From Pseudomonadota bacterium (GTDB lineage: Bacteria > Pseudomonadota > Gammaproteobacteria > Enterobacterales > Alteromonadaceae), in assembly GCA_051750845.1 (NCBI GenBank), contig JBNJKC010000002.1, forward strand, positions 31,910 through 95,909: a stretch of DNA of 64,000 nt. The letters are read 5' to 3'. The notes under the pieces are model-generated. The model worked only from the letters and a program-made list of their open reading frames with translations, was not told the DNA's origin and ran no database searches. Position numbers and translations under genes: made by a program. Below are positions 51,935 through 63,427 of this stretch, piece by piece (positions within the stretch are counted from its first letter, which is position 1; each line of letters starts with the position of its first letter).

Positions 51935-54700
51935 ATGGCCACATCTGTTCCCGAAAATCCGTTTATTCTCGTTGATGGTTCCTCTTATTTGTTTCGCGCC
52001 TTTCATGCGCCACCGCACTTAACCAATTCCAAAGGCGAGCCAACCGGCGCTGTTTATGGCGTTGTTAATATGCTGAGAAGCTTATTGAAACGCTATAAAC
52101 CCAGCCATATGGCGGTTGTTTTCGATGCGAAAGGTAAAACCTTCCGTAGTGACATCTACCAGGAGTACAAAGCAAACCGTCCGCCAATGCCCGATGACTT
52201 ACGCACACAAATTGAACCTCTGCATGAAATTGTGAAAGCAATGGGGCTGCCGCTGTTATGCATTGACGATGTTGAAGCGGATGATGTTATTGGCACTCTC
52301 GCCCGACAGGCTGGAGAAAAAGGGCGCTTTACGTTAATTAGTACCAGTGACAAAGACATGGCACAGCTGGTAAATGAACATGTCATGCTGATTAACACGA
52401 TGACTGACACTTTGCTGGATCCTGAAGGCGTTGAGAAAAAGTTCGGCGTGAAGCCGGAGCAGATCATTGATTATTTAGCGCTAATGGGCGACAGTTCCGA
52501 TAATATTCCGGGGCTGCCAAAAGTTGGCGAAAAGACTGCACAGGCAATGTTGCAACAAATTCCAAGCATTGATGCCATTTATGAAAATGTCGATGCGGTA
52601 AGCGAGCTGTCATTTCGCGGCGCGAAAACCATGCCGGCGAAACTGAACGAGTATAAAGATCAGTTGCTTATGTCCCGGGAGTTGGCAACCATTAAGCTTG
52701 ATGTGGCTATGGAATTGCAGCCGGACGAGCTGACCATACAAACTGCAGACAGCGAAAAGTTAGCTGAGTTATATAGCCGATGTGAATTCCGCCGTTGGCT
52801 TGGTGAGCTTATGGAAAGCGGGGCGGCAACTGACCAGGCTTTAGGGAAAACAGAAGGCGAAAAGCCAGTCAGCGACATTAACCAGGACGCTTACCGTGTT
52901 TTAATGACGGAAAAGGAAGTAAGTGACTATTTAGCCTCACTTAAGAAATGCGACTACTTTGCCTTTGATACCGAAACAACCAGTTTGAACTATATGCAGG
53001 CGGAACTTGTCGGTGTGTCATTGGCGATGGCACCCGGCGAAGCGGTCTACATTCCAGTTGGCCATGACTATATGGAAGCCCCGGAGCAAGTCGGGCGCGA
53101 CTGGTTGCTAGAGCAGTTGAAGCCTTTACTCGAAGCGGACAAACCGCAGAAGGTAGGGCAAAACCTTAAGTACGACGCACATATTTTGCGTCGTTATAAA
53201 ATTCGTTTAGGCGGTATTTTAAACGACACCATGCTGGCATCTTACGTATTTAACAGTGTCGGCTCCCGCCATGACATGGACACCTTGAGCCTGCATTACC
53301 TGAACCACAAGACGATCAGCTTTGAAGAGATTGCCGGTAAAGGCGCTAAGCAGCTGACCTTTAATCAAATCGATCTTGAACAGGCGGGTCCCTACGCGGC
53401 TGAAGATGCAGACATTACGTTCCGATTGCATGATGTCTTGTGGAATAAGGTCAAAGATGTTGGCAGCGAGCTACATAGTGTACTGACTGATATTGAAGTA
53501 CCGTTAGTTCCCGTACTGTGCGATATGGAACAATATGGTGTCCGTATTGATGCTAATTTACTTGGTAAACAGAGTCAGGAAATTACAGAGAAGCTCGACG
53601 CTTTAGAGAAAAAAGCTTTTGAGATTGCCGGTGAGGAGTTTAACCTAGGTTCAACCAAGCAGTTGCAACGCATTTTCTTCGAGAAGCTGGAGCTTCCGGT
53701 TGTTAAAAAGACTCCGAAAGGGGCACCATCAACGGCGGAGGAAGTTTTGCATGAGTTAGCGCATGACTATCCTTTACCGGATGTTATTTTACAGCACCGA
53801 AGTTTGTCGAAGTTAAAGTCAACTTATACCGATAAGCTGCCGAAGATGATCAACCCGGACACCGGCCGGGTGCACACCTCCTATCAGCAGGCGGTCACGG
53901 CAACCGGACGTTTGTCTTCCACTGATCCGAACTTACAGAATATTCCTATTCGTACCGCCGAAGGTCGCCGGGTGCGTCAGGCCTTTGTTCCGAAGCAAGG
54001 CTATAAAATAGTTGCTATCGATTACAGCCAGATTGAGCTGCGCATTATGGCGCACCTGTCGCAGGATGCGTCTTTATTAAAAGCTTTTGCTGACGGTCTG
54101 GATATTCACCGGGCAACGGCCGGGGAAGTGTTCGGTTGCAAAGCCGATGAGGTAACTGATGACCAACGCCGCCAGGCCAAGGCGGTCAACTTTGGCTTAA
54201 TTTACGGCATGTCTGCTTTTGGCCTTGCGCGTCAGTTGGGTATTGCCCGCCATGAAGCTCAACATTATATGGATAAGTACTTTGAGCGTTTCCCCGGTGT
54301 GCTGCGCTACATGGAAGATACTCGTAAACAGGCAAAAGAGCAGGGATACGTTAAAACCCTATTTGGGCGTCGCCTGCCTTTGCCGGATATAAAAGCCAGC
54401 AACGGAGCTCGCAGAAAAGGTGCGGAACGGGCTGCTATTAATGCGCCGATGCAGGGAACCGCGGCGGATATCATTAAAAAAGCGATGCTGAAAGTTGCTG
54501 ACTGGATTGATAGCAACCAGTGCCAGGATGACGTACGTATGTTAATGCAGGTTCACGATGAGTTGGTCTTTGAGATAAAAGAGGCCAGGTTGGATGATTA
54601 TATTGCACAATTAACAGATGTCATGGAAAAAGCCGCAAGCCTTGATGTGCCGCTTATTGCAGAGGCGGGTAAAGGCAATAATTGGGACGAAGCGCATTAA
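51935..54700 (+). CDS. polA: DNA polymerase I
   Basis: LVDGSSYLFRAFH 5'-3' exonuclease; FDTETT 3'-5' exonuclease; DYSQIELR; QVHDELVFE. Confidence 0.99.
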   Translation: MATSVPENPFILVDGSSYLFRAFHAPPHLTNSKGEPTGAVYGVVNMLRSLLKRYKPSHMAVVFDAKGKTFRSDIYQEYKANRPPMPDDLRTQIEPLHEIVKAMGLPLLCIDDVEADDVIGTLARQAGEKGRFTLISTSDKDMAQLVNEHVMLINTMTDTLLDPEGVEKKFGVKPEQIIDYLALMGDSSDNIPGLPKVGEKTAQAMLQQIPSIDAIYENVDAVSELSFRGAKTMPAKLNEYKDQLLMSRELATIKLDVAMELQPDELTIQTADSEKLAELYSRCEFRRWLGELMESGAATDQALGKTEGEKPVSDINQDAYRVLMTEKEVSDYLASLKKCDYFAFDTETTSLNYMQAELVGVSLAMAPGEAVYIPVGHDYMEAPEQVGRDWLLEQLKPLLEADKPQKVGQNLKYDAHILRRYKIRLGGILNDTMLASYVFNSVGSRHDMDTLSLHYLNHKTISFEEIAGKGAKQLTFNQIDLEQAGPYAAEDADITFRLHDVLWNKVKDVGSELHSVLTDIEVPLVPVLCDMEQYGVRIDANLLGKQSQEITEKLDALEKKAFEIAGEEFNLGSTKQLQRIFFEKLELPVVKKTPKGAPSTAEEVLHELAHDYPLPDVILQHRSLSKLKSTYTDKLPKMINPDTGRVHTSYQQAVTATGRLSSTDPNLQNIPIRTAEGRRVRQAFVPKQGYKIVAIDYSQIELRIMAHLSQDASLLKAFADGLDIHRATAGEVFGCKADEVTDDQRRQAKAVNFGLIYGMSAFGLARQLGIARHEAQHYMDKYFERFPGVLRYMEDTRKQAKEQGYVKTLFGRRLPLPDIKASNGARRKGAERAAINAPMQGTAADIIKKAMLKVADWIDSNQCQDDVRMLMQVHDELVFEIKEARLDDYIAQLTDVMEKAASLDVPLIAEAGKGNNWDEAH

Positions 54701-54715
54701 TTTTACGATTTTTGT

Positions 54716-54742
54716 GAACTTTATAAAAAGGGTCTAGTCACA
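54716..54742 (+). promoter_or_regulatory. Putative sigmaE-type promoter
   Basis: GAACTT (54716-54721), 16 nt, then TCACA (54738-54742). The established sigmaE consensus is GAACTT-N16-TCAAA. Confidence 0.55.
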
Positions 54743-54746
54743 ATAA

Positions 54747-54823
54747 GTGAGGGCATTAATCCTCCCTCACAAAATTGTTCTCCCTGGATTACTTTTGGCC
54801 CGGCTTTTTAGTCGGGCTTTTTT
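54747..54823 (+). ncRNA. Candidate ~77-nt sRNA at the Spot 42/ErsA position downstream of polA
   Basis: Upstream promoter motif; 5' hairpin GTGAGGG/CCCTCAC; pyrimidine-rich single-stranded middle; terminator GCCCGGCT/AGTCGGGC plus 6 U. Confidence 0.6.
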
Positions 54824-55739
54824 ATTGCTCTTTCTGCGGAATGCCGGCCAGGCCGGGACGACCCTTACGGTTGGCAAACCATACGCCAACAAGAATTGCC
54901 AACATACCAATACCTTGTTGTAACCAGAATGCTTCACCGTCAAGTACGCCCAGCAAAACGGCAACCACCGGAATGAGATAAGTGACTGAACTGGTAAACA
55001 CCGTATTGGTTAATTGCACAACGTGGTTAAAAATAACCAAAGCGCCGGCCGTTCCGGCAATACCCAAAGCTAAAACAGAGAACAGCGATAACATAGCGTC
55101 GGGTTGTTGAACCTGTGCTATAAATTCTGTGCCAGCAAACAAATAGACAGTAGCAGGAACCGCAGCCATGAGTAGCGATATACCTGTGATGGTTAACGGT
55201 GATAAGTCACTGATTTTATGTTTAATCAGGTTCAGGTTAAGGCCGTAACAAACCGTTGCTGCCATGACTAACAAAGCATAAAGGTTGAAGTCCCAACTGC
55301 CATTGGCGGAAGCGGTAACTAAAAGCAGAGTACCAAAGAGGCCTATACCGACACCGATAACCTGTGCTACTCGCGCCTTTTGATGGAAGAATAAAGAACC
55401 GATAACCAGAGTGGCTATGGGGGTTAAGGCATTCAGAACCCCAGTGACACCACTGGCCAATTGAGTTTGTGCTATTGCGAACATAAAAGCCGGAATTAGG
55501 CTGCCAACCAGACCAACACTGGCCAATTTCAGCCAATGCTTGCGGGTGATTTTGTTCAGGCGGCGAGCTATAAAGGGGGCTAGCACGATACCGGCCGAAC
55601 TAATGCGTAGAGCCCCAACTTCCATTGGCCCAAAAGCGAGTAGACCCTTTTTAATTAATAAAAAAGAGCTACCCCAAATTAATGCGAGTAACCCTAATAA
55701 TAACCAGGCGCTAAGCGGTGGTGTGTTATTCGTTGTCAT
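54822..55739 (-). CDS. DMT/EamA family transporter
   Basis: Ten hydrophobic segments; [10 protein letters not shown]; two EamA repeats; TYLIPVVAV. Confidence 0.92.
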
Positions 55740-56346
55740 ACTCTTTGCTATACCACTGGTTGAGTTTCTCTTCGACTTGCTCGACGCCGAAGCGTTTTAA
55801 TGAGGAAAATGCTTCGACCTGAACGTCACCATTAAAGGCAATTGCAGCTTGTCTTGCTTTTAACACCGTTGACTTACGAGCGCCCTGTTTAAGTTTGTCG
55901 GCTTTGGTGAGCAATACCAGTACCGGCAACTCACAATCAACAGCCCAGTAAATGAGTTCCTGATCGGTTTCGCGGAAAGGGTGACGGATGTCCATTAGTA
56001 CGACAATACCCTTGAGGCTGTCTCTTTGCTGAAGGTATTCGCTTAAAGAACGCTGCCACTTCTCTTTTACGGCCAGTGGCACCTTGGCAAAGCCATACCC
56101 TGGTAAGTCAATAAGGCGTTGACCGCTGTCGAGTTCGAACACATTAATTAGCTGGGTTCGTCCTGGAGTTTTACTGGTACGAGCCAGTGATTTTTGCCGC
56201 GTTAGTGTATTCAGAGCGCTGGATTTACCGGCATTAGAACGGCCGGCGAACGCAATTTCGATGCCTGTGTCCGGAGGCAGTTTGCTGATATCCGGTGCAC
56301 TGGTCACAAATTTTGCCGATGCGTAATCTAATTGCTGATCTGCCAC
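55726..56346 (-). CDS. engB: Ribosome biogenesis GTPase YihA/EngB
   Basis: [27 protein letters not shown]. Start placed at GTG 56346 (uncertain; the ORF track starts at 56424). Confidence 0.96.
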
Positions 56347-56541
56347 TATTAAGGTCACTTTTATTGATAAAACGGAACGTCTACGTGCATTATGAAGTAT
56401 CCGGACAGTATCTCCAATGATCATTTAGCAATTGATTCGGTTTTAATCGTTTAATCCACACAAGTTTTGTGTAAAATAGCAACCTGCTTAAGGTGATTTA
56501 TTGGGGCGCGTGGCGCCATCCAGAACAGAAGAGAAGCAAAC

Positions 56542-63090: not shown

Positions 63091-63427
63091 CGCTCCGGGG
63101 CCGTACGGACAGAAAAAAACAAAAAAAAGATGTTAAAAGCCCTTGAGGAAATAATAAAAAGACTGTAAAAATACAGCTGACTCGACACAAAAAAATAACA
63201 AGAGGTCGGGAGATTATCGAAAAGTCGGATTCCATCTTATTTCTCGATAATCCAGGGAGTAAAGCCAATAGGCTAGAGGTTGCTCCATTTTATAATAACA
63301 ATAATAAAAGAAAGGTTACGGAAAACCGCAATAACAAGTCGGAAGCAGTGACAACCATTCTCATAGTTGCAGTGCGCTGCCGATAATATGAGAGAAGCAG
63401 GCGATGTGTAAAAGCATCGCCTTTTTT
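63091..63427 (+). ncRNA. Candidate ~335-nt protein/sRNA-sponging RNA (CsrB/C-like GGA motifs plus CrcZ-like AANAANAA tracts)
   Basis: No credible ORF. Hairpins alternate with A-rich linkers; 7 GGA motifs; 5 AANAANAA tracts; terminator AGGCGATG/CATCGCCT plus T-run (63399-63427). Lies upstream of yihI, where enterobacterial csrC sits. Confidence 0.65.

Follow-up and report, generated by a model that had tools for sequence, protein, structure and literature searches.

A candidate sigmaE-dependent small RNA gene behind polA in Idiomarina, likely a MicA-type paralog

Small RNAs (sRNAs) controlled by sigmaE form the fast arm of the envelope-stress response. To our knowledge, they have been worked out almost solely in Escherichia coli/Salmonella, in Vibrio and in Pseudomonas. 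The interval between polA and engB holds the sRNA Spot 42 (spf) in enterobacteria and vibrios (PMC3295665), and the Vibrionaceae have in addition VSsrna24, an RNA of about 60 nucleotides (nt) located 262 nt downstream of spf and reported to be glucose-repressed (PMC3295665). In Pseudomonadaceae, we found ErsA (Rfam family RF01719), with its GAACTT-N16-GTCAGA promoter, directly after polA in 20 of the 25 genomes sampled. Here we describe the polA locus in a 64,000-nt stretch of the 2.74-Mb genome of an Idiomarina (G000:C2:31910-95909, hereafter the window), where a sigmaE-type promoter and a predicted sRNA of ~77 nt follow the polA stop codon. Among named genomes, exact-pattern matches fall almost entirely within Idiomarina species.

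The element is likely to be an independently transcribed gene of the sigmaE (RpoE) regulon that encodes a trans-acting sRNA, a MicA-type paralog placed after polA. This sRNA probably represses the synthesis of outer-membrane receptors. In the mechanism that we propose, released sigmaE would use GAACTT-N16-TCACA and transcription would start near G54747. It would stop at the intrinsic terminator (54797-54823) and yield an RNA of ~77 nt, in which 26 single-stranded nt link a 5' hairpin to a terminator that ends in a U-tail, the usual Hfq-binding module. The invariant UUGUUCUCCCUGGAUU would pair with the extended Shine-Dalgarno regions (consensus CCAGGGAGAACAA) of mRNAs that encode proteins of the outer membrane, mostly TonB-dependent receptors but also one porin-like protein. 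Such pairing would block translation initiation and ease the burden on the machinery that assembles the outer membrane. By descent, the gene would be a paralog of the gshA-adjacent MicA-type sigmaE sRNA, settled after polA in the position that ErsA holds in Pseudomonas.

Promoter, conservation and structure of the predicted gene

The original prediction for this locus had placed GAACTT-N16-TCACA 15 base pairs (bp) after the polA stop, followed by a 7-bp 5' hairpin, an anti-Shine-Dalgarno-like stretch and a plus-strand terminator. All of these were recovered at exactly those positions, and every coordinate that it gave proved correct. The element lies directly 3' of the polA stop in 23 of the 24 other Idiomarina genomes sampled. 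In addition, a search with R1, a covariance model of promoter plus RNA that scores the window locus at 134.5 bits, showed that the sister genera g44 and g27 have polA-linked orthologs. Hence, conservation in related genomes, without which the prediction was to be abandoned, is observed.

All 20 distinct Idiomarina sequences that were aligned have TGAACTTT and TTGTTCTCCCTGGATT without any change. Within the genus, variation is seen in the promoter spacer, in the linker before the terminator and in the hairpin loop, whose sequences are unrelated and whose length ranges from 9 to 26 nt. The -10 element of the orthologs reads GTCACA, GTCAGA, GTCGTA, GTCGGA or CTCTGA, always at unchanged spacing. 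With seed and hexamers fixed, and spacer and loop drifting, the pattern is that expected of an sRNA gene. In the sister genera the stems differ (GAAAGG/CCUUUC and GAGCGC/GCGCUC) and the seeds are slightly different.

The sigma factor itself is present: an RpoE ortholog with 71% identity to E. coli RpoE is encoded at C1:337832. A sequence GCGAACTTT-N-GTCACAG is found 92 nt upstream of rpoE, the same 16-nt spacing being kept in 21 genomes, and the -35 element of the sRNA shares its form with this GCGAACTTT. A promoter matrix was built solely from the rpoE upstream promoters of 21 related genomes, as two blocks with the spacer ignored, and both strands of the genome were scanned, that is about 5.5 million positions. 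The rpoE promoter ranked first, the sRNA promoter second, the region upstream of rpoH third and ybgC-tolQ fourth. The matrix was used in place of a loose regular expression for sigmaE promoters, which gave no genome-wide enrichment (58 found versus 75 expected). In E. coli and V. cholerae, the promoters of rpoE and rpoH are classical sigmaE-dependent ones (PMC6694218). The rank of the sRNA promoter is the strongest available argument that the sRNA is very probably under sigmaE control. Overall, of the predicted sigmaE-driven sRNA of ~77 nt, an independent gene with a sigmaE-type promoter is very probable from sequence, matrix rank and conservation, whereas its start at G54747 is a projection from the promoter. 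Strong sigmaE-type promoters also lie before rpoH at G000:C2:329250 (+) and at the start of ybgC-tolQ at C1:1106243 (-).

The predicted fold of the 77-nt RNA has an energy of -27.6 kcal/mol (z = -3.8), a value equalled by none of 200 shuffles. In an alignment of 25 sequences, which was fitted to the model and therefore somewhat favours structure, 89% of the cells are paired and 10 of the 17 pairs are changed on both sides. No shuffle out of 500 reached these pairing and covariation scores, and slid controls gave 29-58%. A plain MAFFT alignment yields 84% paired, with 7 pairs changed on both sides; another MAFFT alignment (A2) misplaced the variable 5' hairpin and was kept out of model building. 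Among the 25 orthologs, changes on both sides affect 6 of the 8 modelled pairs of the 5' hairpin (the 7 stem pairs plus C54754/U54763, unpaired in the window sequence) and 4 of the 9 pairs of the terminator.

Two details of the original prediction did not hold up as well. The loop TAATCC (54757-62) is indeed complementary to GGATTA (54786-91), but the pseudoknot proposed from it has no covariation support and is not conserved. The pairing is matched by 48 of 500 shuffles and its covariation score lies below the shuffle mean. Moreover, it is confined to one sub-clade and missing in deeper Idiomarina branches, which have unrelated loops. Likewise, the TGTGA taken for a CRP half-site is present at 54713-17, but other species have GTCTGA, ATATGA, AGCTGA or TTTTGA in its place.

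A small protein was also considered and rejected: the 58-codon GTG frame (54747-54923) reads through the terminator, and the loops of the orthologs differ in length by 1 to 17 nt, in most cases a number not divisible by 3, so that the frame would be shifted.

The polA stop codon (TAA, 54698-54700) is followed by no terminator before the sRNA, and the intrinsic terminator at 54797-54823 would, judging from its sequence, also terminate polA transcripts (Table 1). It is nevertheless very unlikely that the locus is just a polA 3' untranslated region with its terminator, the promoter-like hexamers being there by chance or as a relic. polA has no other terminator, so that its transcripts must run to 54823. 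However, an untranslated region would not fix two hexamers at set spacing while the spacer drifts, nor rank second in the genome by the rpoE promoter matrix, nor keep a 16-nt single-stranded stretch invariant genus-wide. In sister genera, a Spot 42 gene equipped with a terminator stands between polA and the sigmaE-type unit, the latter two lying 70-450 nt apart. As for the surroundings, the gene order is polA, sRNA, EamA (-) and engB (-), and the polA-engB interval thus also holds the EamA transporter gene. UUGUUCUCCCUGGAUUAC occupies 54775-54792.

Table 1 Features of the predicted sRNA locus and of a candidate partner site (window coordinates).
Feature	Position	Strand	Basis and remarks
polA (DNA polymerase I, 921 amino acids)	51935..54700	+	Open reading frame list; Pfam DNA_pol_A and two exonuclease domains
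-35 element GAACTT	54716..54721	+	15 nt past the polA stop; TGAACTTT spans 54715-54722
-10 element GTCACA (TCACA 54738-42)	54737..54742	+	16-nt spacer after GAACTT
Predicted sRNA, ~77 nt	54747..54823	+	Predicted start G54747, end in U-run
5' hairpin, 7-bp stem GUGAGGG/CCCUCAC, 10-nt loop	54747..54770	+	Fold prediction; arms 54747-53 and 54764-70
Single-stranded seed UUGUUCUCCCUGGAUU, anti-Shine-Dalgarno-like	54775..54790	+	Invariant columns; predicted unpaired except one weak 4-bp helix
Intrinsic terminator, 9-bp stem, 4-nt loop, U6	54797..54823	+	Stem 54797-54818, T-run to 54823
EamA-family transporter gene, convergent	54822..55739	-	Stop overlaps the end of the U-run
engB/yihA GTPase gene	55726..56424	-	Far flank of the classical spf interval (PMC3295665)
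TAATCCAGGGAG in CsrC-like RNA before yihI	63248..63259	+	Perfect 12-nt complement of sRNA 54780-54791; candidate partner or sponge (exact-match scan)

Family relationships and the polA interval

No Rfam model matched at gathering thresholds in the window or at 17 related loci. At E <= 10, positions 54600-54900 gave no Spot_42, Pseudomon-1/ErsA or MicA match, and sub-threshold matches only to anti-hemB (28.7 bits), mmgR (26.5) and SorY (26). Membership in these three families was rejected, as they are unrelated CUCCCU-type sRNAs and the likeness is read as one of architecture and anti-Shine-Dalgarno character. Hence, the comparison with Rfam called for by the original prediction, which named the Spot 42 and ErsA models, leaves the sRNA covered by no Rfam model. 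The MicA model (RF00078, gathering score 41 bits) likewise found nothing above its cut-off in 12 Idiomarina genomes.

R1 revealed a second sigmaE-promoter sRNA in the same genome, outside the window, at G000:C1:162037-162167 (-). Its promoter reads TTGAACTTT-N16-CTCTTAG and its RNA contains AUGUUCAUCCCUGAAC. This copy is convergent with gshA and ends 10 nt from the gshA end, in the same way as micA in E. coli, where 8 nt lie between the two. In other Alteromonadaceae genera, R1 matches eleven loci that share synteny with this gshA site and not with polA. Syntenic gshA-linked copies occur in at least 7 other Alteromonadaceae genera, and none of them is detected by the Rfam MicA model.

We built a promoter-less covariance model, R3, whose E-values are rough, from 11 gshA-linked sRNAs, using just their transcribed parts. 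In the 64-kb window, R3 has a single match, at 54744-54823 (48.6 bits, E 1e-11). It recognises all Idiomarina orthologs at 40-55 bits, the g27 and g44 copies at 22-38 bits and E. coli micA at 28.3 bits (E 3e-7), and it matches no ErsA locus. Because R3 matches both the Idiomarina sRNA and E. coli micA, the former is best described, as far as sequence comparison goes, as a paralog of the MicA-type family that lies beyond the reach of Rfam's enterobacterial model. The original prediction had spoken of an unannotated sRNA family in a conserved slot. The RNA is indeed outside Rfam and the slot is real, but the family is not an isolated one, as a model of gshA-linked sRNAs recognises the polA-linked RNA end to end. 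R1 matches also occur in tandem, 10 of them at G177:C1:3612943-3638598 and 5 at G235:C1:1522646-1523828; an example is L071, with the seed UUUUCCUCCCUGAAAU and without a GAACTT promoter. These clusters may be multi-copy sRNA arrays.

The positional analogy with Spot 42 and ErsA drawn in the original prediction is real, and its remark that the body cannot be aligned to either is borne out: Rfam and a custom ErsA model detect no sequence relationship to either. The Spot 42 model (RF00021, gathering score 80 bits) gave nothing above its cut-off in 12 Idiomarina genomes, and its weak matches are not at polA. From these sequences, Idiomarina appears to be without any Spot 42, the sigmaE RNA alone being kept in the polA interval. 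Other Alteromonadaceae have short Spot 42 variants of ~70-75 nt after polA (L175, L177, L180, L183, L187, L190, L194 and L176). In these, the 5' half GUAGGGUACAGAGGUAAGAUGUUCUAUCUUUCAG is joined directly to the terminator, with a palindrome of the TGTAATTAAATTACA type upstream. Rfam scores those at L175, L177 and L183 at 50-61 bits (E <= 0.001), under the cut-off of 80.

In g72, g23, g67, g35, g40 and g39, polA is followed by a gene of the Spot 42 type (GUAGGGUACAGAGG...) together with a sigmaE sRNA, in either order. The presence of both side by side implies that they are distinct genes, and the notion of the slot as one replaceable gene, implied by the original wording, is contradicted. It also largely refutes the proposal that the Idiomarina RNA is a diverged Spot 42 whose CRP-controlled promoter was swapped for a sigmaE promoter, which we hold to be extremely unlikely. 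Its appeal comes from the shared interval (PMC3295665), from the word UGUUCU and, in g44, AGAUGUUCU, both common to Spot 42, and from weak R3 matches of 22-24 bits on short Spot 42 genes. On the other hand, RF00021 finds nothing at the locus, as in the 12 Idiomarina genomes mentioned above, and TGTGA is not conserved.

A different conserved small-RNA-like unit follows polA in g51, g20, g42 and g18 (L181, L182, L188, L192 and L195). It has a sigma70-like promoter, TTTACA...TATAAT, and a body CUUGUUCCU...GAACGCUUGUUGUAAUAAUU...CUAGCUUUCCUCAUAGCU, followed by a terminator. The three of these loci that were scanned (L181, L182 and L188) have no Rfam match.

A true orthology with Pseudomonas ErsA, and perhaps with Vibrio VSsrna24, would make the MicA-type likeness a convergence on the same targets; we consider this rather unlikely. 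The shared position and the GAACTT-N16-GTCAGA promoters after polA in Pseudomonadaceae speak for it, as do a start that reads GUGA at an equal distance from the -10 element and sigmaE-promoter sRNAs after polA in at least 6 other Alteromonadaceae genera. In one genome of the same order with a canonical full Spot 42, a sigmaE-like promoter and a small RNA occur ~275 nt after spf, at the place reported for VSsrna24 (PMC3295665). The opening hairpins also look alike by eye, GAAUGGC...GCCCUUC in ErsA versus GUGAAGGC...GCCUUCA in I. fontislapidosi, which we take as a lead only. Model searches, however, separate the two. True ErsA loci reach 64-134 bits with RF01719 (gathering score 50 bits), which gives nothing here at E <= 10. 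R2, a custom model of 16 ErsA 5' halves without promoter, picks out none of the copies of Idiomarina, g44 and g27, whether run with its default filters or unfiltered, and R3 finds no ErsA locus. R1 is empty in 400 class-level genomes at E <= 0.001, with 8 candidates per genome scored. In other genera, R1 scores gshA-linked copies at up to 60 bits versus about 40 bits for polA-linked ones.

Predicted targets and candidate partner RNAs

The complement of the seed, CCAGGGAGAACAA, is an extended Shine-Dalgarno motif. Duplex energies were scored on 20-nt windows of candidate translation-initiation regions (13,696 start windows); longer windows were dropped, as large loops inflated the energies. Open reading frames (ORFs) were classed as TonB-receptor-like when they had at least 600 amino acids, a signal-peptide-like N-terminus and a C-terminal F or W. 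Among the top 2% of duplex energies are 8 of the 27 TonB-receptor-like ORFs versus 37 of the 2140 other ORFs (Fisher 3e-8). Control seeds placed 0-3 of the 27 there; they comprised the 16S anti-Shine-Dalgarno sequence, the seed of the paralog, 12 seeds with CUCCC kept and flanks shuffled, and 8 full shuffles. In addition, a porin-like protein of 390 amino acids, encoded at C3:117549 (+), lies at the 1.6th percentile. The predicted receptor targets include genes at G000 C3:382822 (-), C1:1217948 (-), C1:1214010 (-) and C5:60907 (+). The expectation that the targets are outer-membrane proteins is thus supported in silico, mainly for TonB-dependent receptors.

One receptor gene is informative across genera. 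An 800-amino-acid receptor at C3:382822 has AGGGAGAGCAGU before its ATG in most Idiomarina. Its g27 ortholog (67% identical) has AGGGAAAACAU, which matches the g27 seed AUGUUUUCCCU perfectly over 11 nt. Between Idiomarina and g27, site and seed therefore differ by two changes on both sides. A conserved CTGCTATATT is found ~20-25 nt before the Shine-Dalgarno region of this gene and is likely a -10 element, which would imply a very short 5' untranslated region. In many draft assemblies, orthologs of this receptor (L233-L253) start 170-900 nt from a contig end, which suggests a repeat or a ribosomal RNA operon upstream. Another receptor leader of g27, AAGUGAUCCAGGGAGAAA (L205 and L211), makes 16 consecutive pairs with the Idiomarina seed and pairs less well with g27's own polA-linked seed. 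That receptor gene may be served by the gshA-linked copy of g27.

The sRNA could instead act in cis or on RNAs other than mRNAs of outer-membrane proteins, for example through titration with an abundant CsrC-like RNA 8.5 kb away or through feedback on rpoE, which we judge unlikely. The CsrC-like RNA offers a perfect 12-nt complement (CUCCCUGGAUUA versus UAAUCCAGGGAG at 63248-63259) within an island, CGATAATCCAGGGAGTAAA (window 63230-63265 (+), L111-L136), that is kept across the genus with diverged flanks. Genome-wide, though, ~6.5 exact matches of at least 12 nt are expected by chance and 4 are seen. Furthermore, the island has changed without compensation where the sRNA reads GGAUUG, and it could be a CsrA site. 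As to rpoE, its ribosome-binding region AGGGAGAACA is a 10-nt seed complement and ranks in the top 20 of the 13,696 start windows, but several Idiomarina species have a weakened site and g27 has none. Since the complementarity erodes within the genus, rpoE was dropped as a conserved direct target and is kept as a secondary possibility. We also observed that AAUCCAGGGAG is an island of the CsrC-like RNA, and that two receptor genes, at C1:1217948 (GUUCCAGGGAGUAAU) and at C1:1214010 (GUUCCAGGGAGUUUU), have ribosome-binding sites similar to the island CGATAATCCAGGGAGTAAA.

Comparison with known sRNAs

Several points weigh against an independent MicA-type sRNA gene acting on receptor mRNAs. Start, size and stress induction are deduced from the DNA alone, and, as polA lacks a separate terminator, read-through and processing could account for part of the RNA. 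Two further extracytoplasmic function sigma paralogs in the genome might read a similar promoter. The Rfam models of MicA, ErsA and Spot 42 are silent at E <= 10, and the family link depends on R3, a custom model built in the present analysis. Through its terminator and U/C-rich part, R3 also gives 22-24 bits to short Spot 42 genes. Regarding the targets, a seed that is anti-Shine-Dalgarno-like easily finds good duplexes with strong ribosome-binding sites. The ORF calls, the signal-peptide rule and the TonB-receptor-like class are crude heuristics, and several of the eight receptors are paralogs, hence not independent. The g44 orthologs of the 800-amino-acid receptor are not clearly complementary to the g44 seed, and a reciprocal test of own versus foreign seed in g27 was not significant.

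Judging from this locus and its relatives, MicA-type RNAs reach well past the Enterobacteriaceae of Rfam into the Alteromonadaceae, with the gshA position kept, and the Idiomarina lineage has a second copy directly behind polA. Spot 42 and a sigmaE sRNA are separate genes able to share the polA interval, which bears on the old designation of ErsA as the Pseudomonas 'Spot 42 orthologue'. The analysis also points to a concrete target class, TonB-dependent receptors, in a marine bacterium with an outer membrane rich in them. These points are useful for annotation and for comparative sRNA evolution, and involve no new mechanism.

A broader scenario can be drawn, which is clearly improbable when its parts are taken together. 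The polA-engB interval would be an ancient sRNA nursery, and its sigmaE RNAs (ErsA, the Vibrio RNA by Spot 42 and the Alteromonadaceae copies) would descend with MicA from one ancestor. The ribosome-binding sites of TonB-dependent receptor genes and the UCUCCCUGG-type seed would have evolved together, and the Idiomarina RNA would be titrated by a mimic of such a site, AAUCCAGGGAGUAAA, on the CsrC-like RNA 8.5 kb away. If true, this would link envelope stress to the Csr/Hfq network in Idiomarina.

Among the described systems, Spot 42 resembles the Idiomarina sRNA by its place in the polA-engB interval (PMC3295665) and by the short word UGUUCU. It differs in being 109 nt long, in having a sigma70 promoter repressed by CRP and in its role in carbon metabolism. 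The conserved hexamers of the Idiomarina sRNA are of the sigmaE type, its TGTGA is not conserved and no Spot 42 model matches it, and sister genera have a short Spot 42 gene as well as a sigmaE sRNA after polA. VSsrna24 is comparable as a second small RNA of the polA interval; the unit ~275 nt after spf in the same-order genome lies in a similar place and may correspond to it.

ErsA (Pseudomon-1, sigma22/AlgU-dependent) is closer in layout. It shares the location directly downstream of polA, a GAACTT-N16-TC..A promoter and a 5' stem-loop with, after it, a pyrimidine-rich stretch that is unstructured and pairs with ribosome-binding sites (PMC5819304, PMC8395346, PMC13613067). However, it is 132 nt long versus ~77 nt, it has a second stem-loop that the Idiomarina sRNA lacks, and RF01719 and R2 detect no sequence relationship. 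RybB, MicV and VrrA illustrate the proposed mode of action, in which sigmaE induces an Hfq-dependent sRNA that represses mRNAs of outer-membrane proteins (PMC6694218, PMC1804206). They differ by their seed (the conserved RybB/MicV 5' domain) and their loci, and have no Rfam match here. The Idiomarina sRNA has general hallmarks of Hfq-dependent sRNAs, in that its Rho-independent terminator carries a U-tail and its conserved seed is predicted to be single-stranded, and the genome encodes Hfq.

MicA (SraD, RF00078) lies between gshA and luxS, whereas the Idiomarina sRNA follows polA. Its 5' pairing region is free and it has an internal hairpin, in contrast to the 5' hairpin and the lack of an internal one in the Idiomarina sRNA, to which the Rfam MicA model gives no score. 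Its target is ompA, whereas TonB-dependent receptors are predicted here. On the other hand, both RNAs have a sigmaE-type promoter and a similar size (72 nt versus ~77 nt). They share the words UUGUU...UCCCUG(A/G)AUU and UUUUGGCC, the latter opening the terminator. Finally, R3 recognises both, and the Idiomarina genome also has a copy in the MicA position.

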